The translations under genes and the position numbers were made by a program. A DNA stretch of 58,251 nucleotides, counting the filler, from Dugesia japonica (Eukaryota): assembly GCA_001938525.1 (NCBI GenBank). It is 6 parts of 6 records of this genome, joined end to end, with 100 filler letters (N's around TTAATTAATTAA, not from the genome) between each part and the next. Parts side by side here need not be neighbours in the genome. Positions count along the whole stretch, not along the records: positions 26,811 to 37,967 come from MQRL01638084.1; 5 more parts are not named here. The stretch is one strand, 5' to 3'. Below, one piece after another: positions 8,700 to 54,914 of this stretch (positions are counted from its first letter, which is position 1; each line of letters opens with the position of its first letter). Under the pieces are notes generated by a model. It was not told the DNA's origin, did no database searches, and was given only the letters and a program-made list of their open reading frames with translations.

Positions 8700-8799
8700 N
8701 NNNNNNNNNNNNNNNNNNNNNNNNNNNNNNNNNNNNNNNNNNNTTAATTAATTAANNNNNNNNNNNNNNNNNNNNNNNNNNNNNNNNNNNNNNNNNNNN
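8700..8799. other. Artificial assembly linker 44N-TTAATTAATTAA-44N
   Basis: Exactly 100 nt, stop codons in all six frames, identical at five positions in the window. Confidence 0.97.
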
Positions 8800-17607: not shown

Positions 17608-17707
17608 NNNNNNNNNNNNNNNNNNNNNNNNNNNNNNNNNNNNNNNNNNNNTTAATTAATTAANNNNNNNNNNNNNNNNNNNNNNNNNNNNNNNNNNNNN
17701 NNNNNNN
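17608..17707. other. Artificial assembly linker 44N-TTAATTAATTAA-44N
   Basis: Same 100-nt spacer. Confidence 0.97.
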
Positions 17708-23188: not shown

Positions 23189-24747
23189 TCGGGTAGAAAT
23201 GCACATAACTTTGTAGTTAGGTTCCTTGAGTCATTAAAAGTAAAAAAATTCTTATAAACATAAGTCCGATTATCAACCATTTACAAGATATTAAGGATCA
23301 AATAATTAACTTTCATTAATAATTATATTTATTTAATATTTATTAAACGTTGTATTTATTTAATATTTATTAAACGTTATATTTATTTAATATTTATTAA
23401 TATTCAAACTATTAAGAGACAAGTGCTTGTTTTAATATTCCAAATAAAAAATTATTATTGTCGCACCATTTTAAAATTAGGTAAATTTTTATTAATAATT
23501 AAAATATTTGAATATTTTATTATCGTTTGGATATTATAGATTAGGCATAATGCCATTTCAATTTTCCAATCAAGAGTATGTTGATTTGATATTTTTGTAT
23601 GAATACTGCAACAGTAATTCTGCCGCAGCTCGAAAGAAGTATGGCGAATGATTTTCTAACCGCAGGTTACCTGATTGTGAAACATTTCGACGTGTCTTAG
23701 TGTCACTTATAGAAAAGGGATGCTTCCCTAAGGCATGCAGAGAAAAATTTATACAAAGAATAAACAGATCTGAGGTCATTGAAAAAAGTAAATAAAGATG
23801 CTAAATCAAGCGTAAGAAGAATCTCAGCATAAAACTTGACTCAAGCAAACAACCGTTTACCAGACGTTACGTTAGGAAAGTTTTATCCATATAATTTTAA
23901 ATACGTTCAACAGCTTCACCAAGGTTATTTAAAAAAAGTAGGATTTAGCAAATGGTTAAATCAGCACTGGCAATTGATTCCACCATTCTATTCTGCGATG
24001 AGGCTACATTCACAAGAGACGGAATCAACAATTCGTATAATGAACATGTGTGGGCAACAGAAAATCCACATGCGATAAGAGAAACTCATTTTCAAAATAG
24101 GTTCTCAAATTATACGTATGGGCAGGACTGATTGGACAATTTATAATCGGGCCTCACGTCTTTTGTGGTCATCTGAACATCAATATTTACCAACAATTTC
24201 TGCAATTGGAGCTTCCACTCTTACTCGAAAATTTTACACTTATTATAAGAAGGAAAATGTGGTTCATGCAAGATGGATTTTCATCCCACCGAGCTAAGGT
24301 GGTGAAAAATATTTTGGATGTGCACTTTCAAAGACGTCGGACTGGAATAAATGAACCTGTAGAGTGGCGCCAAGATCACCAGATCTTAATTTATTAGACT
24401 TCTTCATATGGGGCCACATTAAATCCAAAGCTTATGAAATTTGAAAACCAGAAAATAAAGAGGAATTGATTGAGAGGATTTTTGCCGCATTTGAAACATA
24501 GAAATCAACAATTGGCAAAAGGATCAGTTGAATCGTGTGGAACATTGTGAGAAAGTTGATGGAGATCACATTGAACAGTTGTAAATTCTTTTATGTTGTA
24601 AATACAATGTTTGTCTTTGTCTTTCTTTGATCTTCAATATCTTGTAAATGGTTGATAATCGGACCCATGTTTATAAGACATTGTTTGCTTATATTGACTC
24701 AAGAAAGCTAACTACCAAGTCCTGTGCATTTCTCCGCGAACACCCTG
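23189..24747 (+). mobile_element. Tc1/mariner-superfamily transposon, DD41D (rosa/Visitor-type), near full length and decayed
   Basis: About 115-bp imperfect TIRs (about 23189-23305 vs 24625-24747); the right end is CACCCTG|TA; encloses a transposase pseudogene. Confidence 0.9.
23550..24584 (+). pseudogene. DD41D transposase pseudogene
   Basis: MPFQFSNQEYVDLIFLY (DUF4817-like HTH); ILFCDEATFTRDG; WFMQDGFSSH; RSPDLNLLDFFIWGHIK; ends CEKVDGDHIEQL*. 41 residues separate the 2nd and 3rd Asp after repairing one frameshift. Confidence 0.9.
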
Positions 24748-26710: not shown

Positions 26711-26810
26711 NNNNNNNNNNNNNNNNNNNNNNNNNNNNNNNNNNNNNNNNNNNNTTAATTAATTAANNNNNNNNNNNNNNNNNNNNNNNNNNNNNNNNNN
26801 NNNNNNNNNN
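26711..26810. other. Artificial assembly linker 44N-TTAATTAATTAA-44N
   Basis: Same 100-nt spacer. Confidence 0.97.
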
Positions 26811-27202
26811 ATACATATATAAATATAAATACATATATTATTTAAATTAATTAGTTAATTAATTATATCCCTAATAATCATGATAATCCTTATTACTTTT
26901 ATGAATATTCTATAACTCTTAGGATTACGATTAAAATTAACTTTAATTTACAATGGTTATTATTATGGTTAGCATTTGTCAAAAATAAATAAGTGTCTCA
27001 TTTCTCTAAATTTTCTGGTGAATCGGATTTCTGGTGATAATAATTTAAATTGGGCTTTAGTAACCTTTTGTATGTAACACTATGTGTAATGAGATTGGTC
27101 TTATAAATTTCATTTTATAATACTGGTGCAAAGTTACCCAACTGTTATAATATTAATAACATTGAGTAAAAGGTAACACCTTAAACCCTGTTTATATTTC
27201 AG

Positions 27203-27561
27203 TGCATTCGTCTTTAAATAGGTCCTAGGCCCCTACTAAAAAAGTATGGGAAGATAATGATGACAAAGAGATAACGTGGGATCTTTATAGGTTAGCTAAA
27301 AGGCGATGGGAAGCGGAGGTTGCCGCGGCGGACGCTAAAGTAAAGCGATACAAGCGCAAATGTTTAGCCTTCAAAGTAGAAAGGGACGCCACCCAGAATC
27401 AAGAGAGAGTGTGGATGTCCCAGGTTGAAACTTTTACCAATGTTATTCATTCGTATCAGGAACGGGAGAATAGCTTGATGGAAAACGTGTTGAAGTTGAG
27501 AGCTGCTACTCCTCTGGCCCCTCTCTTAATAGATAAGGGCACCCAAACCAATCGCTCCTGA
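27203..27561 (+). CDS. LTR-embedded accessory exon A (coiled-coil-like, about 118 codons, one early stop)
   Basis: Acceptor TTTATATTTCAG|TG; TAG at 27226-27228; then 110 open codons APTKKVWEDNDDKEITWDLYRLAKRRWEAEVAAADAKVKRYKRKCLAFKVERDATQNQERVWMSQVETFTNVIHSYQERENSLMENVLKLRAA...; AATAAA at 27590. Confidence 0.55.
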
Positions 27562-27671
27562 GCATCGTATTCACTATTGTAGTGACTTTAATAAATTAAT
27601 TATACCTTTACTAATTGTTTTCTCTAATTGTGAATTTGAGTTTCGTCGGTTAAATTGTATTTTTCATTCAG

Positions 27672-28047
27672 TGCCACGAATTAACTTTCCAAATAGCATC
27701 CGAATGTGTCATAGAATTATACGCCGCCTACTGGTCGAACGACACCTCAAGCGTAAGACCAATAGGGCACTTATGAGACACCTGGACCAACGGGATCAGC
27801 TAATTAAAAAATTAGATCTCATCATAAAAAAGCAGAATGACCTTGCGGTCCAAACAAAGGTCTTAGAAGCCGAGAATTGTTGTTAAGAAAAATCGAGTTC
27901 TTAAAGCAATATATTGCTGACCTGTCCCATCGAATAGGTCACCCATCTGTAACACAATGGGATGATAATGACGACGTAGCCGCCTTCAACTTCGCGGTAA
28001 CGGAATCCGATCAGTGGTTAGATCCGGGGGCCCTGGATCTGCTTTAA
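27672..28047 (+). CDS. LTR-embedded accessory exon B (basic region plus leucine-zipper-like coiled coil, acidic tail; one frameshift)
   Basis: Acceptor TTTTTCATTCAG|TG; PRINFPNSIRMCHRIIRRLLVERHLKRKTNRALMRHLDQRDQLIKKLDLIIKKQNDLAVQTKVLEAEN / LLRKIEFLKQYIADLSHRIGHPSVTQWDDNDDVAAFNFAVTESDQWLDPGALDLL*; AATAAA at about 28059. Confidence 0.55.
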
Positions 28048-28297
28048 ATATTTTTATAAAATAAAATTTCTGTGTTCAAATTTATAATTTCTTATGTTAA
28101 CGATAAGGAAAAAATCATTGAACCCGAAAATAAAGGTTATCAGTGTGTACCTTCCATTAAGAGTAAGGTCAACCGCCATAACTGAAAACCTACCCCGGGA
28201 CGGTAGGGTAAATTCTTGAAAGGGTTCCCTGAGGGCTGTTTTTTCCCCAGCCATCTTCGGGTGACACCCAACTCAAGTGGGACCCCAACAAGAATTT

Positions 28298-28317
28298 TGG
28301 GGGCTCAGCCGGGATTT
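28298..28317 (+). promoter_or_regulatory. Primer-binding site complementary to tRNA-Pro 3' end
   Basis: TGGGGGCTCAGCCGGGATTT compared with the canonical PBS-Pro TGGGGGCTCGTCCGGGATTT (2 differences). Confidence 0.9.
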
Positions 28318-28604
28318 ATTAAATTTTTTCAAGAAACAAAAACCTTGTGGGAATGAGGGATAAAAGCATGAAGATTATTATTATATATAATATTATTGAT
28401 GAAAACTATTTAATAATAAATAAATAAACAATTGAAATTATAAAATGGCAAAATTATTTTTGAAAATAGTAGATGGTAAATTAAGAAGTCAACGAATGAT
28501 ATAAAAATAAGACAATGCTAAGGAATTAATAAATAGGAAGTAATAAGAAAACCGGGTAAAATAAGGAAATAAAATCAATAAAATTGGGTATTTTATATTT
28601 TCAG

Positions 28605-28625
28605 AGATCATGTCGAGACACCCAC
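28605..28625 (+). CDS. Candidate leader mini-exon providing ATG (MSRHP + 1 nt), phase-1 donor
   Basis: TTTTATATTTTCAG|AGATC ATG TCG AGA CAC CCA C|GTAAGT: strong acceptor, consensus donor, ATG at 28610. Confidence 0.55.
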
Positions 28626-28649
28626 GTAAGTCATCACAAAACCGTCAAC

Positions 28650-29580
28650 AAGGAAGATAAATACAGGAAGATACTTTAAAGGAAGATAAATAAAAGGAAG
28701 ATAATCAGGAAGAAATTTTAAGGAAGATAATCAGGAAGAAATCAGGAAGCTAATCAGGAAGAAAATTTGAGGAAGATATTAGGAAGAATATCCAGTCATA
28801 TTTATTACGGACACAGTTATGGAAAATAGGGAGCCCCAATTGGTAAGCTACAATCAGAAGATTGATCACCTTTGTAGAAAGTAGCTGCAACAGTTGTCTA
28901 ATGACCGTAGCTGGAGAAGTAACCGAGTATTATTGGATATGTTAAAGGAAGACCACGTGAAGGCCTAATGGCAGACCACGTCGGGAAAAGGAAGCATAAT
29001 TTAGGAAGCCTGCGTATGGGAGGGAAAACCTCGTAAGAAATTTAAGGAAGCCTACGCAAGAAAGGAAGAACACATGAAAGCCTAAGCACGTTAACCAGTA
29101 CGTTAAAGGTAGACCATGTCGGGAAATAAAGGAAGCCTGCGCAAGGAAGGAAAATACGTGAAGTCCTAAACACATTAACCAGTATGTTAAAGGAAGGCCA
29201 CGTAGTTAAGCACACTAAAGGAAGCCTGATTAGAGGAAGATTTAAAGGAAGTCGGAAGCGTTCGCCTGCACGAAAAGGGTACTCCAAACGGAGCAACCGA
29301 TCCCTCAGAAAACTTTCGGTACTCCCCCAGGAAGAATTATTAAGAGTGTGCACTGTTACCCTGGCATATTAAAAGGAAGAAAAGGAAGAAAGCCAGAAGA
29401 GTTCACCTATACTACAGAAAAATGGGTACTCCCACANNNNNNNNNNNNNNNNNNNNNNNNNNNNNNNNNNNNNNNNNNNNNNNNNNNNNNNNNNNNNNNN
29501 NNNNNNNNNNNNNNNGAAGACTTAATTAGGGAAAATTAAAAGGAAGATTAAATGAAGATGTAAGTAAATAAAAAGGAAGA
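28650..29580 (+). repeat. AGGAAG-rich tandem array and about 85-bp repeats in the Gypsy 5' leader
   Basis: About 11 AGGAAG units at roughly 10-15-nt spacing in 28650-28790, and many more downstream. TTAACCAGTAYGTTAAAGG is repeated at about 29091 and 29175. Confidence 0.8.
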
Positions 29581-29869
29581 TGGTTGGGGGGACTATGGTG
29601 ACCAGTGTGGAGCAGCATGATATTAAAGTGAGACAATTAGAAGTAAATTTTATTCTAGTAAATTAAGATACAAGAGTTCCAGAGCCAAAACCGACATACC
29701 ATAGACAATCAACAAGCCAGACTCTGACAAAATAGATTCCGACTCAGAAAATAGGAAACCACTTACAAGGTCCAACACCTCTGGGATATTCAATTCAAGT
29801 ACAGTTTTAAAAGAAAACCAACCCACTCGACGAGGATCAACCAGGAAACCAAAAAACTCATCTATTTAT

Positions 29870-31130
29870 TTGGATCCCGAAGAGAATATTTGTTCATCCA
29901 GGAAATTAGAACTTGACAAGACAAAACCCAAACCTAAAACATTAGAACCCATCAGCTCAAACAGTAGTCCGAGTGATAAAGAAAATACAGCTAATCCAAA
30001 AACCACATCCAGTAAAACTCCAGTAGATAGTAATCGATCAAGTGGGGTAAGTTATACATCAGACGAAACAGAAATCATAGAGGTGTCAGATAGTAATCAA
30101 GTAAATATCGACGCATTAGTAATACGACCAAGCAATTTAGAGACCGAGATACCCTCATTAGTAAACCAAAACCCGAAAATAGAAACTGATCTCGCAAAAG
30201 ATAAAAATATGGCCACTAAAACTGAGAACCATCAACCAAAGTGGAAAATAAAATTCGACGGCGAATATTTTAGTGGAATACCAGAGAAATTAGACAAATT
30301 TATCCAAAATTACGAAATGTTCGCCAAAACCTGTGGTTGGGACGAGGAAGCAAAAAGGAAAAGATTACCAGCCTACTTAACCGAAGCAGCCAAAACAGTG
30401 TTTTGGGATCATACTAAGGGCATGGAAGCTATTCCCGACAAATGGGAAGAAGTGGTGAAAATACTAACAGATAATTTCCAAAACTTAAAATTGACAGGCC
30501 AGGATTTCGAACAATTTAAAAATCGGAAACAACAAAGAAAAGAAACTCCCCAAGCTTATATGATGGAACTTAGGAGGCGTGGCAAATTAGCCTTAGGGGA
30601 CAAGCTGGAAGATAGTCAGGTACTCACTATCTTTTTAAATGGATTGCGAGATGAGAACGCCAAACTAATGGTAAAACTGAGCAAGCCAGTAACGCTACAG
30701 GATGCGCTGGCTACGTTACGAATTGTAGCAGATAGGACATCCGAACGAATATTCAAAGTAGAAGGACAGACAGAGGAAACCACACCACGAATATCGGATT
30801 TCATACCCAACACACAATTAATGATGAAAACCCTGACCCCAGAGGAGGAACGGAATAACCGGAATGATAGCTCTAATTATCCTAAAGGAAATAGTGGAGG
30901 ATTTATCGCGGAATAATTGGCAAAATAATCGAGATATACAATGCAATACCTGTGGAAGAAGAGGACACATAGCTCGCGACTGTAGAAGTAGGGGAAATAA
31001 TGGTAACAACAATCGATTTTGTACCTATTGTATGAAGACCAACCACAACATAGAAACATGTTTTTTGAAGAACCCAACCGTATGTTATAAATGTAATAGA
31101 AGATGACATATGGCAAAAGAATGTCAAGCC
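29870..31130 (+). pseudogene. Gypsy Gag (capsid plus three CCHC zinc knuckles), frameshift at about 30900 and one stop
   Basis: FSGIPEKLDKFIQNYE...WDEEAKRKRLPAYLTEAAKTVF...RKQQRKETPQAYMMEL; knuckles CNTCGRRGHIARDC, CTYCMKTNHNIETC, CYKCNRR*HMAKEC. Confidence 0.92.
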
Positions 31131-33775
31131 GGAAATCAAACAAATTATAATCGAAATCCGAATACAAGTTTGGATAATCTAATGCAGGAAAATGAGAGAT
31201 TAAGGCAACGAGTAAATCAAAACAAGGGACAAGTTAATTTAGTGCATCAAAGTACTTTTGACAATGAGTACCACAAGGTGCAACAGGAAAATGACAGTCT
31301 CAAGTGGCAAAACCAAGATTTACAGGTACAGCAGGAGAGACTAGCTAAAAGAAAACTATTAAACGAACCACACAAGAATCAGTGTAACATGATCCGGACT
31401 CACAGGCAAGTCTATAACCAGCATGACGAAACAACAGAAGTCACCGAAATGGAAGATACTCGCAAACGAATATTGATTACGTCACCAGAATTTGACTGGA
31501 CGGAAGAGATCATAAAACAATAAAACCGTCAGTAACAACCACCGGAAGAAGACGGGTGATGAACCAGTTGCTCCGATTATATCAGCACCCGCAGGTACAC
31601 GCCAAGGTAAGGGTTAATTGGCAGAAAACGATATCGGACTATATCAAGAAACCAAACTAGAGGACCATGAGTTCAAAATTCAATATGTATGGCATAACAA
31701 CCCAGAGGTAGTTCCAAAGCGACTAAAGCTCGCATTAAAAGGAATGACGGTGCGACACTTAAAGGAAGCAACCAACGAAATAAAATGGGGAGAGGTGAAC
31801 GGCAACAAGGGTATGGCAGTAAACCCAATCTTCGAAGCACCACCATTTAATGATCAACAACAATGGAATGCGAAATGGAATAGACATAGAATACAAATCG
31901 GCAATATCGGAATTAATATTATTCCAAACGATAAGAACTTAATTTATTACGGGGCAAGACCTCATGAGATAACCATAATCAAGTTAATCAACTGAGGATT
32001 AGTGTTCAGACCCCAAATAGTAATTCAAGAAATAGAAACAAGCGAGTTATATCATAATCTCGAAGAAACATTCTTGAAAGAAATTGTTCCCCTCCAGTCA
32101 CAAACCTATATGCGGAAGAGATTGGGGACAGTAAGGCTAATGGACCATCTAGAACTGGGGCAAATCGAAGCATCAAGATTATCATTAGCTCGAATAGATG
32201 AGATACTAGTAGCCGCCAAGAAACTCCATGATACCATCAGGAAGGACGTATATTTAAAATTGACAAATCGATTGGTGGTGCTATTGGAAGTTATAAAATT
32301 GATAACTACTGAAGAAAGTGATTGGACAGAATGGTTACCGGTACATTACGATTGGGTTATATCCAAAATGGGCTTATTGGATTACCAAGTATGGTTATAT
32401 AACCCGGAAGGTAATATGAAATTGACACTCATGGGATTAATGGTAGAAGACCTAGAAGCGGCACTCAATCAAGCAGGTTATCCATGTGTGATGGGTAAAT
32501 ACGTATGCACTCCAAGTGCAATAGTGGATTTTAATGCCAGAAAAAGACATATCTACGATTTCGGAATAAAACCAGGAGAAGAAATCAAACTGGTAATATT
32601 GGACAAACACCGATGAATCGATTATGACGTATGGGTAACGAAAACCGGTAGATCAGCTTTTGAAATCATGGGAGAAATGGAATACCTATATAAACAAGGA
32701 GTAGAGCCAATTAAAATTAAGATACTTTCCACGGTACTCGGAAAGAAAGATAAACTGACAAAGGAAGAAAGGAAAAAGTTGTTAATGACGCGTAATGACT
32801 TCCTTAGACAACGATTGGAGAGAAGAGAAGGTAAATGCAACATGATAAGAATGCGACAGATGCCGTCAAGAGAGGTAGTNNNNNNNNNNNNNNNNNNNNN
32901 NNNNNNNNNNNNNNNNNNNNNNNNNNNNNNNNNNNNNNNNNNNNNNNNNNNNNNNNNNNNNNNNNNNNNNNNNNNNNNNNNNNNNNNNNNNNNNNNNNNN
33001 NCGGAGGAAATCGAGAATCAATGGCTCTTGATGAGGCAGAAGTATGCCGAGGAAATATTGGCAACCACCAAAATTCGGGATTATCAGTTATATTTGAATA
33101 TAGGTAAAATGAACAGGAATTGACTAAATACAGCCGATTAAAACCACAAAGAATAACCATGATGGACTTAATGGATGCCATCACCGATAAGTGGCGAGAG
33201 CAAAGATTAAATATAGTGCCTCTGTTCATAAATGGAAAATTGGTAGAAACGGATGATGAGGACAAACACATATTCCAATGCCATGCGAAGCCTGGAGAGA
33301 TATGTGAGCTAGATGTNNNNNNNNNNNNNNNNNNNNNNNNNNNNNNNNNNNNNNNNNNNNNNNNNNGAATCCCGAACAGTTCCACCACCAGACCTTGAAG
33401 AAAGGATGGAAGAGATAACAGAAATATACGTAACCGAAGTATTGTCAGACATAAAGAAACAAGTAAAAGAAAATCAGAAAATACAGAATATTGATAACTT
33501 ACCAATAACCCCCACAAAGTCAGTTGTATTCCCAGAAGGGTCACCAACAATACGCGACGGATGAACAATACGGATGAACTATACCAAACCGATAACGGAG
33601 GAATCTGCCACGTTTCACGCTATCAATGATTTAATGAGAGTAACACGCGAAACGCGCCCGGTAGTAAATATCAAAGTATATTGGAAAATGATGAATAATC
33701 TACGGGATTTAGCCCCCTATGGACAACTTAGCTTGTGGGCCCGTGCACAATGGTGGAAAAAGAAAAATCTTTACG
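31131..33775 (+). pseudogene. Unknown coding insert between Gag and RNase H
   Basis: ORFs at 31618, 32002, 32668, 33313 and 33574 share the RNase H frame and are mostly separated by single TGA stops. No D[ST]G protease or YxDD RT motif was seen. Confidence 0.65.
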
Positions 33776-35654
33776 AAGAAGAGGAACAACAACAAGCATT
33801 CGAAACTTTACTGGATAAGCTATTAACCGAACCAATTCTAGTACATCCAGACTTCAAAAAGCCATTTATATTAGCCACTGACGCTAGTGGATACGCGATG
33901 GGCGCCGTATTAAGTCAACTAGATGAACAAGGGAGAGAAAGAGTGATTGCATATTTTAGCAAGAAATTCCAAGGAGCAGAGTTGAATTATAGCACGAAGG
34001 AACGGGAGATAATGGCTACTGTGAAAGCCACCAAACATTTTCGATCACTTATACATGGTCACGAAGTAGTAATCTATACGGATCATTTACCAATCACTTT
34101 TATGGCACAAATACCACTACGATGGAATAGAATGGCCAAGTGGCAACTAGCAATGCCAGATTATTGTCCTCTATTAAAATTTAAAATGGGCAAAGCCAAC
34201 TCAAATGTGGCTTGTCTGTCAAGGATTGGTGGACCAGAAGCCACGGAGAATGCACCAGAGGATACAGAAACATTTACATTAAGGGAATTATTGGAGAAAA
34301 AGATAAGAATAGTATACTTTATACTAACGGAAGATAGAAATTTCGATGTGTTAAAGCAAGCACAAACCGACGATGACGAGATCAAGATCATTACGAAATA
34401 CATGGAAAATTATAATTTGGAAGAATTAGAATGTGAATCTAAGATGAAAGAGCACCTAAAAAAGAATGGGGGGCGATTTGCACTCACCAAAGGATGGTTG
34501 ACAGCTCAGGATGGAGACAATACCATGTTAGTTATTCCCAAAGCAAGACAAGATAAGTTACTTGAACAGTATCTCAATGGTGTACTTGGCGGACACATGT
34601 CTCATAAGAAGACTGAATCCAAATTAAGACAAAAATATTAATGGCCAAACATGACACAATGCCAGATATGCGCTGCCAGACGAGGAACAGGAAAAAGAGT
34701 AAAAACGTTATTAAGACCCATTGCCGTACCAGCGGCACCAATGGAAATCATCGCTATGGATGTAGTTGGACCATTGCCACCGACCTTAAGCGGAAATATT
34801 TACATACTTACCATCATGGATTATTTGTCTAAATTCCCGGAGGCATTTCCAATGAAAAATCAAAAAGCAACCACAATAGCAGACATATTGGTACGAAAAT
34901 TCTTCAGTAGATATGGTACACCAAAGAAAATATTGACGGATCAGGGAAGAACTTTATGAGCAACATATTAGCAGAAATATCGAACTTCCTAAAAATTCAC
35001 CAATTACGAACCTCACCTTATCACCCCCAAACGGATGGGTTAACAGAAAGATTTAATAAAACCTTGATCAATATGCTGTCCAGTTATGCTCAAAAGGAAC
35101 AAAATCACTGGGATAAACATATTCAACTTTGCCTATTTGCATATCGGATGAGTGTGCACCCAGCAACTAAATACACCCCATTCGGCCTGATGTATGGCAG
35201 AGAGTGCAACATGCCTATTGACTCGGAATTCCAACCACCAATAACGCAATACCAAGACGAAACAGATTTCGCTGCAAATTTCAAAGAAACCATGCAGAAA
35301 ATATGGAAACAAGCCAAAGAAAATGTAGGTTTCTACCAGGAAAGCTACAAGGATCTACATGATAAATCAGCAGTGCAGCATTCCTTTAAAAAAGGCGATA
35401 TGGTATTAATCAATTTACCAGACATTTGTGTCGGCACAACATCAAAACTAAAACGACCATGGCAAGGACCGTATGAGGTAATCAAAGTAACAGAAACTAA
35501 CCTCAAGGTTCGGAAAAAAGGGAACCTACTGGAGAAGCCTAATATATATCACGCCAACTTGTGTAAAAAGGCGGCGATGACAGAAAAAGTCGCACCAGCC
35601 ATAAGCATCGAGCCCACTACGATGGACCGTAAAGGGCCAGGTCGGTCACGTTAG
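33776..35654 (+). pseudogene. Gypsy Pol C-terminal half: RT connection, RNase H, integrase
   Basis: QQAFETLLDKLLTEPILVHPDFKKPFILATDASGYAMGAVLSQ; NYSTKEREIMA; YTDHLP; GGHMSHKKT..CQIC; AMDVVGPLP; ILTDQG; SPYHPQTDGLTERFNKTL; WQGPYEV. Stop at 34639, frameshift at about 34955. Confidence 0.95.
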
Positions 35655-35766
35655 TCAGAAAAAATAGAATTAAATATATCACACAGCTATCCATTACGGT
35701 CACAACAAGCCATGACGGTACTTAGTAAACCACTAATAAATCCTTCACCAGTAATAAAAAGAAACA

Positions 35767-37554
35767 GTGATAAAGAAAAACAGTCTCAGCGAGGATGCTG
35801 AGTTTGAAGAAAACGGGGAAGGATTATTAACGGGAAAGGAGAAAAAAGTAAAACAAGAAACGAGTCTACCTGCTGCAAAAACGGAAACAGAATTACAAAA
35901 GAAAACTAAGGTATTAAAGATGAATGTTTTTAGACACGTCATCAACCAAGGAAAAACTATGGAGGGTAGTACAATCACAAATACCTCACCAAGTATTTCG
36001 GTGATAGAACAAACAAGTAAATTATGCAAAATCAAACATACATTAAATAATATCCAACCCCAGCAAACACGGCAAAGAGCGTCGTTAATTAATAATGAAG
36101 AAATGGTTACGAAACAAACGGTTAAAACGTTATCTTTCAATTCAGGTAATCAAATGCGACGACCACTTATGATATAGGTAATGAGCGCCACTACAATCTA
36201 TCCAATCACATATCAAGGAATACAAACACCTAAAACAGAGGAGAATTGTGCTCATATCGTAAAGATAACATGTCCACTTTCAGTAATGCAGTTAGAAGGA
36301 AACTGTTCACAATGTATAAAGAAGACGCAAATCATACTAAAAACCACGTGGAAGGCGATTTATGATCAGAAGACATGGTTATTAAGACAAGAAAATTGGT
36401 TCAAAAAAGATTGTGAAGGGTCACGAATCGAACTACCAATTGAAGCACCTATCCGGCAATCTACCTTAAAAAAGTTATGTTTATCCTGTACCGAAATATC
36501 CAGTGAAGAATTGTTAACATCTATTCACTTATTCCACCATACACCAGTACGATGGAACTGGATTAAGGTATACGAACCATTGAAAATCCAATTGCCAGGA
36601 AGTATGACCACACCAGCTATCCAAAGCAGATCAGCTTGGAAGAAGTCGAAACCAATAAAAATTGTAAACTTTCTTGAAGAACTTAAAACGCAAGGGAAGT
36701 CGACTCAGAGTCAAGGTGACGAAGAGGCGAGAGAAGCATGTCAGAATCAAGATAAAGAAATGAAGGAAAAAGAAAAACAACTAGCCAGAATAACGTCGAG
36801 AAGGGAGAATAAAATAGAAGCGACACTAATACCAAGGAAAGGGGATCAAACAGAATTTAAAAAATCAAAAAATGAGTTAAAACAAGAAAGCAAGAATGAG
36901 ATTACAATGAAATTAATAGTTAAATTATCCCTGCTATTATGGGCAGTAATAAACACAAGTTGGGATCATGGCCTTTTAGTGTGGTCAACCGCAAAACTTA
37001 TTAAAAATACGGGGAAAGGACACCCCATATCGAGTATCTTATATGAAATCACAGGGATAATTCTACTCTGGTTAACGTCACCAGCACTGGCAACACAACA
37101 AGCACAAAAACTCAGCCAAAATCAAATTTCTAATGTCCAAAGTATATTGATTATCTTATTAACAGCCGTAAAGGAAATACAAAGTCAGGAATGCTGGGTA
37201 AATGAACCAGTATTGACAGAACATAGGATAGCCACGGGAAAAGATGTATCCAAGGTGACGACCATTAGTCGTTCTGGATTATTAAAAAAGCGGAAAACAC
37301 AACCAATGTATCATACCGGGAAAATAACGCTTGTACCAGTAATAGAAAGTCAAAAGAGGACAATGGTAAGAATAGATGAAACAAAAGGGAAAATAAAAGT
37401 ACACCTCTTAAGCCAATTGCCGATAGAAGGTCGATTGATACAATTTGGCCTAGATAAATGGGTAATAAATTCCGTGGTGGATATAAAATGTGAAAACCCA
37501 GACAATCCATTATTGTATGAAATGAAAGCAGAATTTGCAATAGTGGTCGAGTAG
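35767..37554 (+). pseudogene. Extra 3' ORF in env position (membrane-protein-like, unidentified)
   Basis: ORFs 35767-36177 and 36181-37554 are in one frame. Cys-rich block followed by three hydrophobic segments (LIVKLSLLLWAVI, ILYEITGIILLWLTSPALA, VQSILIILLTAV). Confidence 0.55.
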
Positions 37555-37967
37555 CAACATCCTGATATACTATGTAGAAGACAACCTTCGAACTAAGGAT
37601 TGGGAAACGCGAAAGACCCAGAACCAAGAAATAAAAATATGTGCAAGAAACGAATTTAACTATCATACCATTATTTGGCAGTTCCGGCGCTATCAGGTAA
37701 GAAAATTTGGAGAGGAGATAGAAAGGGAAAGGCAAACAAGTATAACCTTCAATCAAGGTTGTAAGTAGTTTCCTCAGAATTTTCTATTTTGTTATTTGGT
37801 TCCATAAAAATTAACACTTGAGTTGTAAAAATTTATTTTAAACTATTATTCTTTTATTGATTTGCCACAAAAAATTCCCCGAATCAACCTGTGTATTTAA
37901 TTTACCTCACATCCCCCTCTTTTAAGATTTTTTTTAGCTTCTCGACGTTTCTTTCTACGACTTTGCC

Positions 37968-38067
37968 NNNNNNNNNNNNNNNNNNNNNNNNNNNNNNNNN
38001 NNNNNNNNNNNTTAATTAATTAANNNNNNNNNNNNNNNNNNNNNNNNNNNNNNNNNNNNNNNNNNNN
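37968..38067. other. Artificial assembly linker 44N-TTAATTAATTAA-44N
   Basis: Same 100-nt spacer. Confidence 0.97.
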
Positions 38068-42508: not shown

Positions 42509-43934
42509 GTAACAAGATAAGCCTCTATTAATAAGTTATGGTTTATTCTATTGGATAAAAGATTAAGTCCATTACAATTTGAGATAAATATGATTTCAAC
42601 ATGAAAATAATAGGTTTATCTTGTGACAAATAAGTATTTCTTCACTTTTTTCCTTCATCCTTGCTTGCTTCCTGTTTCCTTGCGTGCTCCTTGTTCCTTG
42701 CGTGCATTTTGGCAAACCTGCGTGCACTTTGGTTTTCGTGGGTTTATTTATCTTTTAAATGCTTAATTATCAGTCAGTAAAATCAACATTTTAACTATAA
42801 TTTGTACCTTATTACACGGTTTCGTTATTGAAAATATGAGTTTCACTATTGAAAAATAATGGACTTATCATAGAAAACTGTGGGATAATTATAGAAAATA
42901 CAAGTTTTACCATTAGAAAATATTATTTTGGACATATAAAATATTTAATAGAGTAAATCTAGTCACTAATTATACTGCATTTATTATATACTGCATTTAA
43001 TATGCTTAATGAGTCTATTTTTGTTCCTTTTTGCCTATTTTCCCATCATTTCCCCCTACTTTAGTCATTTACCCTATATTTTCCTGATTTACCCATATTT
43101 AGCTACATTTAGCTATATTTTCATTATTTTCCACAATGTTTCATCATTTACATTATTTAGCTATATTTATTCTCTAATTTCTATTGAATCTTAATCTTTA
43201 AAGAGTAACATTTAGAGATAAAAGGAGATAATAAGACTGAGTGATAGTGAGTAAGAGTTGATATGACATGCTTCTTATTTAAAATAACTATTTCATTATA
43301 TTTTAATCGTCTGATTATCCTTCTACTTCTTTGCTTACTCCTTGATTCTCTGCGTGTACCTTGGCAACCCTGCTTGCAATTTGGTTTCCATGGGTTTATT
43401 TTTAGATGTTAGAAAATATGAGTTCAACATTAAAAATTTGGGTCTTATTATTAGAAATACTTGATTCAAAATTAAAAATATAGGTTTAATAGAAAACAAG
43501 AATTTTATCATTAAAATACTGGTTTTAACAAGAAAGTATGGGTTTTAATATGAGAAATATAGGTTTTTATAATTAAATATAAGACCATTAAATCATATTT
43601 ATTCAATAAAGCAATTGTTGTAAGTGGTCTCCACTATATTATAATTATTTATTTAGAAGAACATATTGACAAACAAGTAATACTTATTCAATTATTTATT
43701 ATTCAAATCAGGTTTTACTTCATGCTTAGTATGTTTCATTGTATTAATTTAGAAAAATGAACAAGAGTGGGAGGAAGCTAATGTTAATGATGACAAGACA
43801 GAGTGAAAAAGTATCATCAAATTTACTTGAAGTCAAATAATTTTATCCAAAATTTACATAAACTTTTAAAACATGATTAAAAATTTACTAGAACGTTTTT
43901 CTAATCGTTGAAAAATTACACAAACTTTAAAACA
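42509..43934. repeat. 1426-bp direct duplication, copy 1
   Basis: Appears identical to 45027-46452 (offset 2518; identical ORFs at 43009 and 45527). Confidence 0.93.
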
Positions 43935-45026: not shown

Positions 45027-46452
45027 GTAACAAGATAAGCCTCTATTAATAAGTTATGGTTTATTCTATTGGATAAAAGATTAAGTCCATTACAATTTGA
45101 GATAAATATGATTTCAACATGAAAATAATAGGTTTATCTTGTGACAAATAAGTATTTCTTCACTTTTTTCCTTCATCCTTGCTTGCTTCCTGTTTCCTTG
45201 CGTGCTCCTTGTTCCTTGCGTGCATTTTGGCAAACCTGCGTGCACTTTGGTTTTCGTGGGTTTATTTATCTTTTAAATGCTTAATTATCAGTCAGTAAAA
45301 TCAACATTTTAACTATAATTTGTACCTTATTACACGGTTTCGTTATTGAAAATATGAGTTTCACTATTGAAAAATAATGGACTTATCATAGAAAACTGTG
45401 GGATAATTATAGAAAATACAAGTTTTACCATTAGAAAATATTATTTTGGACATATAAAATATTTAATAGAGTAAATCTAGTCACTAATTATACTGCATTT
45501 ATTATATACTGCATTTAATATGCTTAATGAGTCTATTTTTGTTCCTTTTTGCCTATTTTCCCATCATTTCCCCCTACTTTAGTCATTTACCCTATATTTT
45601 CCTGATTTACCCATATTTAGCTACATTTAGCTATATTTTCATTATTTTCCACAATGTTTCATCATTTACATTATTTAGCTATATTTATTCTCTAATTTCT
45701 ATTGAATCTTAATCTTTAAAGAGTAACATTTAGAGATAAAAGGAGATAATAAGACTGAGTGATAGTGAGTAAGAGTTGATATGACATGCTTCTTATTTAA
45801 AATAACTATTTCATTATATTTTAATCGTCTGATTATCCTTCTACTTCTTTGCTTACTCCTTGATTCTCTGCGTGTACCTTGGCAACCCTGCTTGCAATTT
45901 GGTTTCCATGGGTTTATTTTTAGATGTTAGAAAATATGAGTTCAACATTAAAAATTTGGGTCTTATTATTAGAAATACTTGATTCAAAATTAAAAATATA
46001 GGTTTAATAGAAAACAAGAATTTTATCATTAAAATACTGGTTTTAACAAGAAAGTATGGGTTTTAATATGAGAAATATAGGTTTTTATAATTAAATATAA
46101 GACCATTAAATCATATTTATTCAATAAAGCAATTGTTGTAAGTGGTCTCCACTATATTATAATTATTTATTTAGAAGAACATATTGACAAACAAGTAATA
46201 CTTATTCAATTATTTATTATTCAAATCAGGTTTTACTTCATGCTTAGTATGTTTCATTGTATTAATTTAGAAAAATGAACAAGAGTGGGAGGAAGCTAAT
46301 GTTAATGATGACAAGACAGAGTGAAAAAGTATCATCAAATTTACTTGAAGTCAAATAATTTTATCCAAAATTTACATAAACTTTTAAAACATGATTAAAA
46401 ATTTACTAGAACGTTTTTCTAATCGTTGAAAAATTACACAAACTTTAAAACA
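45027..46452. repeat. 1426-bp direct duplication, copy 2 (ends at the linker)
   Basis: Appears identical to 42509-43934. Confidence 0.93.
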
Positions 46453-46552
46453 NNNNNNNNNNNNNNNNNNNNNNNNNNNNNNNNNNNNNNNNNNNNTTAA
46501 TTAATTAANNNNNNNNNNNNNNNNNNNNNNNNNNNNNNNNNNNNNNNNNNNN
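46453..46552. other. Artificial assembly linker 44N-TTAATTAATTAA-44N
   Basis: Same 100-nt spacer; it supplies the false stop of track ORF 46497-47321. Confidence 0.97.
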
Positions 46553-48245
46553 TAGAATAATTAAGTTTTATAAAAATTTCAAAAGCATCTTTTTCAAAAA
46601 ATCCTGTAAATATAAAATAAAATGGAGGAATAATATATCCAGGTAACATAAGTATAAAAGGTTCTATAAGATAAAAATATAAAATTTCATTTTTAATTTC
46701 ACATTTTCCTTTTCTATGAAATTTAAATTTAAATACATTACCACCAGGTGGGTTGGAAAATGAAAACCCTGGAAGTTTATTATTTAATTTTTGAAAAACA
46801 CTAATAATAAAAATTACAGTTTTTTGGTATTTTATGGGTAATAAAAATTTCATATCAAAAAATGGTAAATAATTATTAATCATAAAGTTTAATTTTGAAT
46901 AAATATAAAAATCATATTTTTCACTATATTCTTTCAATAAATCATTAATGGGTTTAATATAACCTTTATAAAGAAGTGGTTTTATTTTTTCAATTTCTAA
47001 TAATAATTTATCTTTATCACTTATTCCACTTTTAATAATTAATTCTTCAAAAGAATAATTTGTTGGTAAAATCTTTTTAATAGTATTTGGAGAAGTAGAT
47101 GATTTTATTGTTTCAAAAAAAATAAATTTTAAATCAAAATCATAATATTTTAGTTTCTTCTTAACACCATCAATTTCTATAATAAATTCAAGAGATTTGA
47201 TTATTGGAAAATTATAACCTTTAATCTCAATATTAAAAATCTCAGGAAAAGTCCTAAATAAAATAATTTCTAAAGGTTCTTTAGTAACCCATGATGTGGT
47301 GGAAAAATTGTTTAGGAACATAATTTCTCCTTTTCTTTTAAATTCATAATTAGTTATAGATTTATCAAAATAAGAAAGTGGGAGTGTATTCTTAGGTCTT
47401 TATATTAAACAAAATATTATCCCAGTTATATCAGGGATTATTATAAGTAGATTTTTTTTTCAAGCGTTGGAAAATAATTATAAATTATTTGTTTTAATTT
47501 ATATAAAACATGTTCAGATTTATTTTTTCTAAATTATTGAATTAAAGTATTAATTTTCTTAATATTACTTTCATTAAACTGACTTTTTATTTTTTCAAAT
47601 TCTTTAATTAAGGGATCAATTTTCATTTCATAAGATTTTATTTTATTTTTAACATGCTCAATATATAATAAAAATTTATCAAAAGTTTTCTTATCTAAAT
47701 CATCATCTAAAACATTAATTTTATCAAATCATTCCATAACTGGTTTCCTCAATATTATGTGTGAATTTAATTCTTGAAATTCAACTGTTTTTCTTAATAA
47801 ATCCCTTCTTTTAAATGGTAAAACTTCTAATTTTATTCTTTTAATTTCAGAATTTATTTTTTTAAATTCGTCTGGATTACAATTTTTTGATAAATTATTA
47901 ATTTTATCATTTATAGTTTTANTATCAANATTTTNATTTTTTTAATTCATCAACTTTAGTTTGTAAATAAATTTTATCACCTTTATATTTTTCTATGTTT
48001 AAAATTTTACTAAAAATTATTTCATGTCTTTCAATTTTATCTTCTTATTGTTTTACATATTTGAAATTAACTGCATCATTTAAATCTAAAGGATCTTCTA
48101 TTATTTTTAAACATGTAATCATGTCACCAGTTTCATTAACAAATTTATTTTCATTTTCTGCATTTGAAATCCGGATTTTAGCATCAACATGTTTAATTAA
48201 TTGTGAATTATTTACAGTGAATAAACTTTCTCCAAACTTATTCAT
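46553..48245 (-). pseudogene. Polinton fibre-like protein with repeated C-terminal domain (fragmented, truncated by linker)
   Basis: N-terminus MNKFG...FVNETGDMITCLKIIEDPLDLNDAVNFKYVKQ resembles the GD.M...DP...DA.NK.YV fibre repeat; a coiled coil follows; ORF 46553-47321 extends upstream in frame and contains an internal repeat. Confidence 0.5.
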
Positions 48246-48251
48246 TATTCG

Positions 48252-48679
48252 CTATTTCTTTATATAAATTTTTCATCTCTAAAATTATATCATCAATACT
48301 TTTATATTGAAGAGAATATAAAAAATAAATACATAAAATTCCACAAATTTTAGAACCAAAATGTTGAACTTGAATTTCATTATATTTAGTTACAAATTTT
48401 TCTAATTGTTCTAAAGGTTTTTAACCAAAAGAGTCAAAATAATAACCTTTAGTGAATGCAACCCAATGAGTTCCTTTTTGATTTGTATTTTGATAATTTA
48501 AAATAATATTGGGAATGTTTACATTCCCAAATTTTGATTCCAATATTTTTAGGTATTTCATTTTTCATATAAATTTCTAAATCCATATTTAAAAAATCTG
48601 CAATTGAATATAAATCAATATTTGTTATTGTAGAGATTCCAAATGTTTTTAAAAAATCTATAATTAAAAATGATGACAT
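48252..48679 (-). pseudogene. Adenain/Ulp1-like cysteine maturation protease
   Basis: After a frameshift at about 48500: NQKGTHWVAFTKGYYFDSFG*KPLEQLEKFVTKYNEIQVQHFGSKICGILCIYFL, containing the catalytic H, D, Q and C. Confidence 0.92.
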
Positions 48680-48697
48680 TTTCTAAAGAATAAATGT

Positions 48698-48798
48698 GTC
48701 GTCCCAGGACGACTGTTTTAAAAATATGTCGTATAGGAATGTTAAAGATTTTAAGATTTTAAAGTGACATTAAATAGAGCCACGTTGTGGCTCATTTA
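48698..48798 (-). promoter_or_regulatory. Intergenic cassette 1: hairpin, conserved 31-32-nt motif, hairpin
   Basis: GAGCCAC-gtt-GTGGCTC (48777-48793), motif 48723-48754, GTCGTC-ccag-GACGAC (48698-48713); lies between the penton stop and the protease ATG. Confidence 0.65.
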
Positions 48799-48801
48799 TT
48801 T

Positions 48802-49471
48802 TTAAAGTCTATATTTACGTAAATGAACTAAAATTGAAATTGTCTCTTGGTTAAAATCTATTGTATTAAAATTTTCATCTGCAATGTTAAATCTTAAACT
48901 ATCAATGTATTTTGTATTAATTTTAGAATAAATTGTTACAGATTGGTCTTTCAATAATTTTAAATCCAAAAGGTACTGTATTTATAGGAAATGAATATAA
49001 TAAATTTATTTGTTCAGTATTACCTTTTGGAGATTTTACATAATTACCTTTAACAATATTGCAAGTAATATTTATCATGTTAATATTTGAAATATCAATT
49101 TTATTATCTGAATAATAATTTCCTGGTGGATAAGGTTTTACAGTAAATCCTAAAATTTTATGAAAGAAAGAATTCTCATCAAAAGTTAATAAGTTTTTAG
49201 TTTTCATGTTACATTTTGTTGTTGATGTATCTGCTGAAACTTCTATTCCATATTTTTCTAATCTATTTGATATTTCTTTTATTTCATATGCACCAGGTTC
49301 TATNNNNNNNNNNNNNNNAAATTTATTATTTAAATTTGTAATGTTAAAAATAATATTATAACATGTAAAACAAATTAATCCAAGTTCATATTCTGAATCT
49401 AATTCTAAAGGAAATTTTAAATCTAATTTTAAATCTTGTTCTTTACCAACTATTAGGAATTGATGTGACAT
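48802..49471 (-). pseudogene. Minor capsid protein (penton, single jelly roll), frameshift at about 48935
   Basis: FPLELDSEYELGLICF..NIIFNITNLNNKF..IEPGAYEIKEI..NMINITCNIVKG..LYSFPINTVPFGFKIIERP / INTKYIDSLRFNIADENFNTIDFNQETISILVHLRK: typical Polinton minor capsid motifs. Confidence 0.88.
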
Positions 49472-49489
49472 TTCTTATAATAATAATAT

Positions 49490-49582
49490 AGGAAGCAAAG
49501 CTTCCTTTGTTAAGTTATAAAATTAATATGTCGTAATGGAATGAAAAGATTTTAATAATAAAACACGCTAGCAAGCTAGCGT
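49490..49582 (-). promoter_or_regulatory. Intergenic cassette 2: hairpin, conserved motif, hairpin
   Basis: ACGCTAGC-aa-GCTAGCGT (49565-49582), motif 49525-49555, AGGAAGC-aaa-GCTTCCT (49490-49506); lies between the upstream gene's stop and the penton ATG. Confidence 0.65.
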
Positions 49583-49585
49583 TTA

Positions 49586-50411
49586 TTATGAGAAATATTT
49601 CTCGTTATATTTATCATAAATTAAATTAGAAATTAATCCCATCATTTTTAATTTTTTACATACTTTTTTAATTTCTTCAGAGAGATTATCATGTCCAGAT
49701 NNTGCTGCTGAAATTAATAATGTTAACTTTTCAAATAAATCTACTGGTCCTAGGGCTTTTCTTTTTTCCACTTTACTTGTTGGTCTACCTCTTTGTTTAG
49801 GTTTTATTTTTTCTCTTAAAAATTCACAGTAATCATCATCCAAAAACTTCTTATTCCAATATCCATTAAAATTTCAAGATAAGCATAACTTTTTCCTTCC
49901 AGTGTAAAATATTTTACATTTCCTCTTTTATAAAAAAATAATTCTTCATCATCAAGAAATTTTATTGTTATGAATTTTTTTTCAGGTTNTCCTTTTAAAC
50001 CAACATTTGTTAAATATATTTTTGGTGTTGTTGATTTTGATAATACACCTTCATTAATTTTTAAATCCTCAATAGTAAATGGAAGTATATCTTCTTTTCT
50101 TAATGTTTCTATTAATTCATTATCTTCATCTACTATTTCTTTATCTATTATTTCTTCATCTTAAATTTTATCTTCTATTAATGAATCTTGTGTTGATTTA
50201 TCATTTAAAATTATTTTTTCTATTATTGGTTCTATCTTTTGAGTTTTACTTTTTTCTATTGCTGTAATTGTTGGTTTTTGTAATATTGATAATTCACTTT
50301 GTAATTCTCTTGACTCAATAAAATTCCCCATAAAAAGTTATTATATTTTTCTTGACCTTTAATTAAAGCTTTTAATTCTCTAATTCTTTCTTCAACTTCT
50401 TTTGTATTCAT
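49586..50411 (-). pseudogene. Conserved Polinton helical protein of unknown function (frameshifted)
   Basis: Starts at a TAATG stop/start overlap (MNTKEVEERIRELKALIK). C-terminus PVDLFEKLTLLISAAXSGHDNLSEEIKKVCKKLKMMGLI resembles the P.EL..RL.LL.AS..AGN....EI..I..EL...G.I motif of invertebrate Mavericks. Confidence 0.65.
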
Positions 50412-50926
50412 TACTGGCTATTTTTATAAGGATTAAAATAAAGTCCATCACCCTTATAAGGATTAAAATAAAGTCCATCGCCTTCAATTTCAATTTTAAC
50501 TCCATCTTTAAATTTTCTAGTTAAATATTTAAGGTTATCATCTTCAATAATATTTTTTAAATATTTATGAATTGCTGAACCTTGATATGGATTTAAAAAA
50601 ATACCTTTTCCTTCTGTTTTAGTTTCACTAGTAGATGTAGATGTTTTAGCTTTTTCTAACATATCGATCTCTTTCTGTTTTTTAATAGCATCTTTTGAAC
50701 TAGCAACGGTACTTGCAATTCCAGATGCAATTCCAGCTGTACCTGCTAACGCTCCAATTATTGCTGGTATTGCAGCAAGAAATGCAAATCCCCCATCAAT
50801 TTCTTTTTTCTTTTTAAGTTCATCTTTTACTTTTTTAGAGATATAATAATTTTTACCATTAATTTTTACAGATTTACATTTTTTTGAATTTACTATTTTT
50901 TCTAATTCTTCTTCTGTTACACTCAT
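50411..50926 (-). CDS. Polinton virion core / membrane-active precursor protein
   Basis: Intact 171-aa ORF. IDGG|F adenain-type site followed by hydrophobic FAFLAAIPAIIGALAGTAGIASGIAS; repeated GKGIFLNPY, GDGLYFNPY, GDGLYFNPY. Confidence 0.75.
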   Translation of the reverse strand: MSVTEEELEKIVNSKKCKSVKINGKNYYISKKVKDELKKKKEIDGGFAFLAAIPAIIGALAGTAGIASGIASTVASSKDAIKKQKEIDMLEKAKTSTSTSETKTEGKGIFLNPYQGSAIHKYLKNIIEDDNLKYLTRKFKDGVKIEIEGDGLYFNPYKGDGLYFNPYKNSQ

Positions 50927-51008
50927 TTCTTAATTATAAAATTTCGAGTAGTAGGCCGCATGGTAAATTATTTCTAGGTATTAAAATTTTTTTTATTTTA
51001 TTTATCAT

Positions 51009-54000: not shown

Positions 54001-54730
54001 AATCAATAATGTGTGACATTGTCCATCCAGATCCTTCTCTATCTTCATCTTCAATATATCTTTGTAATTCATTAAATATTTCATTAACACCATTTTCAAT
54101 TTCANNNNNNNNNNNNNNNNNNNNNNNNNNNNNNNNNNNNNNNNNNTCTCTTTCAACATTTACATTATTTATTTCTTTTGTATATCTACATTTAACTATC
54201 ATACTTATAAGAATCTTTTTTCCATATTTAAAATACTTTCTAATAATTTCTTCTACTTCATCTTGAAATAAATTAACTTCTCTAATAGGTTCATATATTT
54301 CATCCACATTTAATTTCATTACTACTTTGCTTTTTTTGAAATATTCAATTTCATATTCTTTATACATTCTTAATAAATCTCTAATTTCTGGTTCGTAATC
54401 AATTGCTTCTTCACCAGGTAATTCTTCAAATAAAACTTTGTTTAACATTTCTTTATGTTTAGGAGAATTATAATGCGCTCTTGCATGATTTTGTTTTTGA
54501 AATCTTTTATTACAAATTAAACAATATAATGGAACAATATTTGGGTTGCCGCATTTTGTTGCATTTAAATGTTCTTGTAAACCATTTTCTGTTCTAAATG
54601 TTCGATGACATTTTACACATTGAACTGGTGTATCATTTGTAAAATAAGTTCTAGATTTAATGTGTCCCATTAGCCAAGCTAAGTTTTTAAATAGCTTTCT
54701 ACAATTAGGACATTTGTGTATACCACTCAT
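51009..54730 (-). pseudogene. Protein-primed DNA polymerase B with N-terminal C2H2-like zinc fingers, OTU-like block and endonuclease VII-like insert
   Basis: EGSGW; NIENKDNKCFLYSILA; exo I DFEA; CYYC..VKDHNHFNGKFRG..CNRCN; exo II HNASGYD; YMKLDVLIL; GIRGG; motif A IDENSL; motif B YKLMLNAFYGKT; motif C YTDTDC; DDKR. Several frameshifts. Confidence 0.95.
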
Positions 54731-54914
54731 CTTTTTTCTATAGTATTAATTTAATCATAGCCATAATAAAAGGGGGTAATCATTTTTTCATCATATTTTT
54801 ATTTTTGTAATTTCATTTTTTCATTATTTTTATACATCTGAAATTTACCTCAAAAGAAAATGTCTTCCTTTAAAAAAAATAATCCCGAAAATAAAATTAG
54901 TATTTTTTTCTCAT

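Follow-up and report, generated by a model that had tools for sequence, protein, structure and literature searches.

Accessory genes that overlap the U3 region of the long terminal repeat (LTR) include HIV nef, MMTV sag and foamy virus bel, and retroviral accessory messages share one poly(A) signal. The C. elegans element Cer1 is related to Gypsy/Ty3, and older work on C. elegans Cer elements reportedly described retrovirus-like extra ORFs. According to the accessible text on Cer1, its accessory protein CERV (517 aa) is the one product of a five-exon spliced mRNA with three exons in the gag frame, is nuclear, has a potential leucine zipper and is required for export of the genomic RNA (PMC10309623). 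In the MDG1 group of Drosophila, as described in the available part of the source, two small ORFs, called sORF1 and sORF2 (about 110 and 70 aa), lie upstream of gag, are unspliced and flank an alternative poly(A) site; the product of sORF1 is nuclear and that of sORF2 is a membrane fusogen (PMC11952523). Accessory genes of invertebrate Gypsy elements hold key functions, namely RNA export (CERV) and cell-to-cell spread (sORF2). Extra ORFs are also described, in the portions available, for the internal region of rotifer, planarian (Burro) and plant LTR elements, some of them coiled-coil and some typically expressed from spliced messages (PMC5408684, PMC6431247, PMC7264820). The tunicate Oikopleura Tor elements have extra ORFs too, and an internal promoter for env, as far as the accessible text goes (PMC4402516).

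Here we analyse a window of 58,251 nucleotides of assembled Dugesia japonica DNA (GCA_001938525.1), in which two exon-like frames, A and B, lie upstream of the primer binding site (PBS) of a Gypsy element and a short exon with a start codon lies downstream of it. The original prediction regarded such an arrangement as unknown in invertebrate Gypsy elements. That claim was too wide, since spliced or small accessory genes have been published for Cer1 (CERV, PMC10309623), the MDG1 group (sORF1/2, PMC11952523) and rotifers (ORF3s, PMC5408684); its narrower part stands, in that a U3 site with alternative last exons is unreported in the literature searched. This search, thin in subscription papers, found no ORFs within an LTR and no alternative terminal exons in U3, and the available parts of PMC13524379 and PMC13486581 contain nothing on LTR-encoded exons.

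Results

A decayed Ty3/Gypsy element in the window

Identical N44-TTAATTAATTAA-N44 linkers at 8700-8799, 17608-17707, 26711-26810, 37968-38067 and 46453-46552 indicate that the window consists of joined contigs, and pieces that stand side by side may not be genomic neighbours. The flanks of the whole window are AT-rich (about 24% GC), and the piece at 26811-37967 has 34-40% GC per kb from 27001 on. By its domain order and its PBS, this piece contains a decayed Ty3/Gypsy element (Table 1). Pfam detected a gag CCHC knuckle (zf-CCHC, 5e-6), RNase H (RT_RNaseH, 1e-33) and then integrase (rve, 2e-10), and the closest matches of the element's proteins were generic Gypsy-type polyproteins at 36-45% identity (the best 120 of 135 matches). 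The gag-pol region comprises 13 frame pieces over 7.85 kb and so has 12 breaks, some of which are possibly natural or gap artefacts. Neither a Pfam match nor a catalytic motif was found for protease or reverse transcriptase (RT) in this copy, and both were either deleted from it or hidden by the two N gaps within 31107-33564. The coding-like frames between gag and RNase H suggest a large polyprotein with extra domains. The peptide CNMIR is repeated within these frames near 31385 and 32838 and may mark protease cleavage sites. The three hydrophobic stretches of the post-integrase frames are signal-peptide-like; these frames had no family match in Pfam, their fold prediction was unusable (pLDDT 36), and they are candidates only for an env-like role.

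Table 1. Features of the Gypsy element and of the predicted exons, with positions counted along the whole window.
Feature	Position	Strand	Basis
Acceptor A, branch-point-like TTAAA at -22 to -18	27181-27202	+	Sequence scan
Predicted exon A, 118 codons in phase 1, in-frame stop 27226-27228, predicted single long helix	27203-27561	+	
TQT motif (LC8/dynein-light-chain-binding type) in the unstructured tail of A	27529-27549	+	Regular expression
AATAAA of exon A	27590-27595	+	
Acceptor B, TTAAA at -22 to -18	27650-27671	+	Sequence scan
Predicted exon B, about 124 codons, frame change near 27880, basic N-terminal half, zipper-like middle, acidic/aromatic tail	27672-28047	+	
AATAAA of exon B, overlapping TATAAAA at 28055	28060-28065	+	
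Candidate U3/R border: AATAAA (28129), then initiator-like TCAGT (28140)	28129-28144	+	
Candidate first donor GTAAGG upstream of the PBS, putative partner of acceptor 28604	28163-28168	+	
Primer binding site	28298-28316	+	Pattern scan of viral contigs
ATG mini-exon, 21 nt, TTTTCAG acceptor, phase-1 GTAAGT donor	28605-28625	+	Sequence, shuffles
gag, broken	29705-31106	+	Pfam: zf-CCHC above cut-off, Retrotrans_gag below
Broken frames, no recognised domain, about 2.4 kb, two N gaps inside	31107-33564	+	Frame map, Pfam
RNase H and integrase, Ty3/Gypsy order, broken	33565-35654	+	Pfam, protein relatives
Post-integrase long frames, three hydrophobic stretches	35758-37554	+	Frame map, Pfam
Nested antisense element end: PPT 37912-37923 and 152-bp TG...CA LTR-like segment 37911-37760	37760-37967	-	

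Identity with the planarian element Burro was considered and is unsupported, as Pfam found none of Burro's extra domains in the element. The order of integrase before RT, given for Gmr1 in the accessible text of PMC3601003, was not seen in this copy, whose RT core is absent. Three scans of viral contigs for relatives of the element returned 0, 1 and 0 loci, and metagenomes returned 45, with full-length matches at 32-43%. In these 46 loci there was no match to A, B, gag or the extra frames and no copy of the element's PBS, and no close relative was found among the viral contigs and metagenomes searched. Scans with Rfam and for tRNA genes returned no matches.

The window holds remains of further mobile elements. 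A second LTR element ends antisense within the Gypsy element; its 152-bp TG...CA segment contains two AATAAA, and a frame at 37760-37967 (minus strand), which had no Pfam match, is presumably integrase-tail-like. A strong acceptor at 37937 was examined as a third exon and rejected, since the site is the antisense strand of this nested end. A decayed Polinton/adintovirus-like element was recognised by eye at 46500-54745 (minus strand), where Pfam found C2H2 fingers and endonuclease VII and no match for the polymerase-like frames. Broken frames at 23833-24397 (plus strand) look like a Tc1/mariner transposase by eye, and the one piece tested had no Pfam match. An identical direct repeat at 42509-42808 and 45027-45326 (2518 nt apart) may have been duplicated in assembly or be a pair of small LTRs.

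Phase-compatible splice signals on both sides of the PBS

Two coding-like exons of about 120 codons, each opening with TG directly after a TTCAG acceptor, had been described upstream of the PBS. Both acceptors are present, ending at 27202 and 27671, and each is T-rich and opens a long phase-1 frame, but both frames are broken, which the original prediction did not mention. Exon A has a TAG at codon 8 in the phase-1 register and its first in-frame Met at codon 71. Exon B, with an in-frame Met at codon 11, is open in phase 1 for 70 codons, stops at 27884-27886 and can be read further only in a different frame (27841-28047). In this copy of the element, both exons are defunct. The AATAAA reported 3' of each exon were found at 27590 and 28060, the second having been placed at about 28059.

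The mini-exon was likewise recovered as described, 290 nt past the PBS, with its ATG at 28610 and a phase-1 donor that fits both A and B. Its acceptor and those of A and B rank within the top six of 306 YAG sites on the plus strand of the element for T-richness (T counts 12, 12 and 10), and a nine-letter tract ahead of CAG, TTTATATTT, noticed post hoc, is common to acceptor A and the mini-exon acceptor. Two sites inside the element, at 29330 and 37165, are also possible phase-1 acceptors for it, so the mini-exon donor need not use A or B. The leader at 28640-29390 is GGAAG-rich (28 copies) and contains an 85-nt-spaced duplication at 29044-29228.

Position of the exons relative to the LTR

The PBS that the original prediction placed upstream of the mini-exon was confirmed. 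It agrees at 17 of the first 19 letters with the PBS carried by 11/11 viral contigs that a pattern scan returned, and Pfam found retroviral gag or pol in all three of these contigs that were submitted to it. We take it to be of the tRNA-Pro type. In insect elements, an AATAAA stands ahead of the initiator at the U3/R border and R is short. The candidate border in Table 1 shows this order, and a DPE-like GGTCA lies two bases off the usual spacing. The initiator consensus is TCAKTY in the available part of PMC3601003.

BLASTN found no second LTR copy within the window: the contig ends inside the nested antisense element before any 3' LTR, and the 3' end of the Gypsy element is thereby cut off. 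Twelve TG-start candidates for the LTR occur in 26811-28200. The best end pairing found is between TGTT at 28095 and AACA just before the PBS, which gives a 196-bp LTR excluding both exons. Composition bears on the same point. The exons have 44-45% GC vs 23-26% in the spacers, and a positive AT skew; with the element at 38% GC (skew +0.30) and the host flanks at 24% GC (skew about 0), the exon values fall closer to those of the element. Adenine at third codon positions amounts to 24-31% in the exons vs 44% in gag-pol, which counts against a long LTR. No purine run of at least 11 occurs between 26811 and 28300, so there is no polypurine tract (PPT) for a tandem junction. Weighing this with the composition and with the tract common to acceptor A and the mini-exon acceptor, we consider that exons A and B likely lie in the U3 part of a long LTR, a prediction made from sequence features and a weak step in the argument.

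If the LTR is instead short, for example from 28095 to about 28290, A and B would be coding remnants of flanking DNA, either of another mobile element or of a host gene that uses alternative last exons, and gag or the post-integrase frame would be served by the mini-exon. The end pairing and the third-position A agree with this reading, as do the phase-1 acceptors inside the element and the presence of a nested insertion at the contig's other end. However, the GC and skew of the exons are unlike those of the flanks and of the neighbouring Polinton-like frames (23% GC), 26811-27202 has no hallmark of another element or of the host, and remnants of foreign origin would have to match the phase of the mini-exon donor and, by the post hoc observation above, share a tract with its acceptor. 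We regard a short LTR as unlikely.

The exons could also belong to the element, in U3 or in the 3' internal region of a tandem upstream copy, and be expressed otherwise: from a different donor, from an internal promoter or, for B, from its own early Met. Further GT[AG]AG donors exist in the element (14 among those listed), a TATA-like motif is found at 27102 and two Inr-like ones at 26998 and 27110, and internal promoters are documented for Tor elements such as that of Oikopleura env in the accessible text of PMC4402516. Against these stand the lack of an early Met in A, the lack of a PPT for a tandem junction and the mini-exon phase that suits both exons, and we think such a route decidedly improbable.

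Predicted products of exons A and B

The original prediction called both products coiled-coil and proposed structure prediction as a check. AlphaFold without an alignment modelled product A as a single helix over residues 10-93 (84 residues, mean pLDDT 85). Heptad periodicity was non-significant in 5/5 segments (p 0.12-0.55; p 0.12-0.24 in exon B), so a coiled coil is plausible, no more. A homodimer prediction for A scored 0.28, below the mark of 0.32, and is left out of the evidence.

Outside the helix, at pLDDT 61-67, product A contains a TQT motif. This motif, one chosen after the fact, occurs in 0.4% of shuffles of A, and the six-frame translation of the window, 116,498 residues in all, contains it three times. 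LC8 binds TQT anchors and dimerises its clients, among them Panoramix in piRNA-guided silencing, according to the available portion of PMC7919418. Predicted product A has the features of such clients, a TQT anchor in a disordered stretch beside a helical region, and is a candidate LC8 client.

The first part of B is basic (17 K/R in 70 residues), followed by acidic and aromatic sequence. The zipper-like segment reported for B is present in its middle but is spread over two frames, because B stops and resumes in another frame. Basic regions of bZIP proteins carry the signature N-x7-R/K. This signature was not seen by eye in B, no bZIP family was among the Pfam matches of either piece, no Pfam family reached the cut-off and the heptads were non-significant. 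The label of transactivator for B reflects composition only.

Searches for homologues of A returned none in a set of 5.8 billion sequences, among 1.84 billion representatives, in the PDB or among 238 metagenome candidate stretches. No homologue was found for the first 70 residues of B (best PDB match, E 0.18), and its second piece had no match in Pfam or the 46 related loci. A paralogous relationship between A and B was considered and is undetectable beyond one 11-residue match (E 0.5-2). No transmembrane stretch was seen by eye in either product.

Coding remnants or chance

A cassette was taken, with thresholds set post hoc, to be an acceptor containing 10 or more T whose next 70 codons include no more than one stop. 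Exactly two occur in 26811-28297, both in phase 1 like the mini-exon donor. Dinucleotide shuffling, run 2000 times under each of three schemes, gave two cassettes of the same phase at a frequency of 0.25% (whole), 0.2% (200-nt) and 0.4% (100-nt), and two phase-1 cassettes at 0-0.25%; the mini-exon pattern came up in 1.2% of 5000 shuffles. A single cassette is a common occurrence, with 23 in about 94 kb of sequence elsewhere in the window, counting both strands. The predicted frame of exon A has one stop where 7.6 are expected (P=0.002). A codon-usage score, trained on gag-pol with stops excluded, was significant for the second half of B (p=0.001) and for A at p=0.049, but 0.15 as the best of three frames, and gave no signal for the first half of B (p=0.74); among controls, 0/5 non-coding and 3/3 coding sequences (first frame) fell below p<0.05. 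The two exon breaks in 0.73 kb come at about the rate of gag-pol, so they fit decay of once-coding DNA and are no argument against coding.

Chance, by which GC-rich enhancer blocks of a long U3 would contain accidental frames beside common AT-rich motifs, is very unlikely, since the broken frames, the absence of homologues in the searches above, the missing codon signal in the first half of B and the frequency of TTCAG and AATAAA in AT-rich DNA (10 AATAAA in 26801-29000) are set against a joint shuffle frequency of 0.002-0.004, the depletion of stops in the predicted frames, the confident helix of A and its TQT motif. Collectively, the exons are arranged in a self-consistent, non-random way, and A and B are probably remnants of real coding DNA.

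Discussion

The explanation that we favour, and to which we give about an even chance, is that the broken exons upstream of the Gypsy PBS likely belong to U3 of a long LTR and that, in the 3' LTR of intact copies, they would each provide a last exon, used alternatively and spliced to the ATG mini-exon. Transcription would start near 28142, and splicing of the donor at 28163 to the acceptor at 28604 would remove the PBS together with seven upstream ATGs. All seven ATGs between 28142 and the mini-exon lie inside this putative first intron, so once it is removed the mini-exon ATG would be the first one. The mini-exon's phase-1 donor (28626) would then skip gag-pol and join acceptor A or B of the 3' LTR. 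Each spliced message would end at its own AATAAA, and the genomic RNA would continue to the AATAAA at 28129. LC8, bound at the TQT tail, would dimerise product A, a long helical protein. Product B would be small and nuclear, with basic, zipper and acidic parts, and would most likely regulate transcription of the element itself or export of its RNA. Several observations count against this explanation: the genomic RNA must bypass two poly(A) signals, the best end pairing excludes the exons, phase-1 acceptors exist inside the element, the spacing of GGTCA is off, and codon signal in the first half of B, significant heptads and homologues of A or of the first half of B were not found.

On the same reading of the sequence, the element may work like the accessory system of complex retroviruses. 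The full architecture, a U3 array of alternative last exons with their own poly(A) sites and one shared start-codon exon, is put forward tentatively, at somewhat less than an even chance; it would make an LC8-binding helical protein and a Tat/Rev-like nuclear regulator. That product A acts as a decoy for the LC8-dependent piRNA silencing complex is the most speculative of these ideas and hardly probable. The TQT motif after the predicted helix of A, the candidate Inr and the candidate upstream donor are new in this analysis. Annotation pipelines treat LTRs as non-coding and seek ORFs that start with ATG, so start-less U3 exons would be missed systematically. If confirmed, the arrangement would open a new place to seek regulators or anti-silencing factors encoded by transposons, and would be a natural example in which the choice of poly(A) site decides between accessory messages and genomic RNA.

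Compared by description with the available account of Cer1 CERV (PMC10309623), the present element is likewise an invertebrate LTR retrotransposon with an accessory protein from a spliced mRNA, here predicted. Unlike CERV, it would make two products of about 120 aa that have only a five-codon start exon in common, from exons upstream of the PBS. Two small accessory ORFs in a Gypsy-family element with a poly(A) site between them recall the MDG1 group as described in the accessible part of PMC11952523, but inspection by eye showed no transmembrane stretch in A or B, and both are situated across the PBS from the position of those ORFs. The rotifer, Burro and plant elements are, in the portions available, also Gypsy-type with additional ORFs (PMC5408684, PMC6431247, PMC7264820); theirs are internal, whereas here the site is a candidate LTR. 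If the U3 array described above is real, complex-retrovirus organisation would have evolved independently outside Retroviridae. As in complex retroviruses, for which foamy virus splicing is described in the available text of PMC7828637, short leader exons would be joined by splicing to ORFs at the 3' end that extend into the 3' LTR; unlike in those viruses, the element is of Gypsy type, its two exons have separate poly(A) signals and its env-like frames are candidates only.
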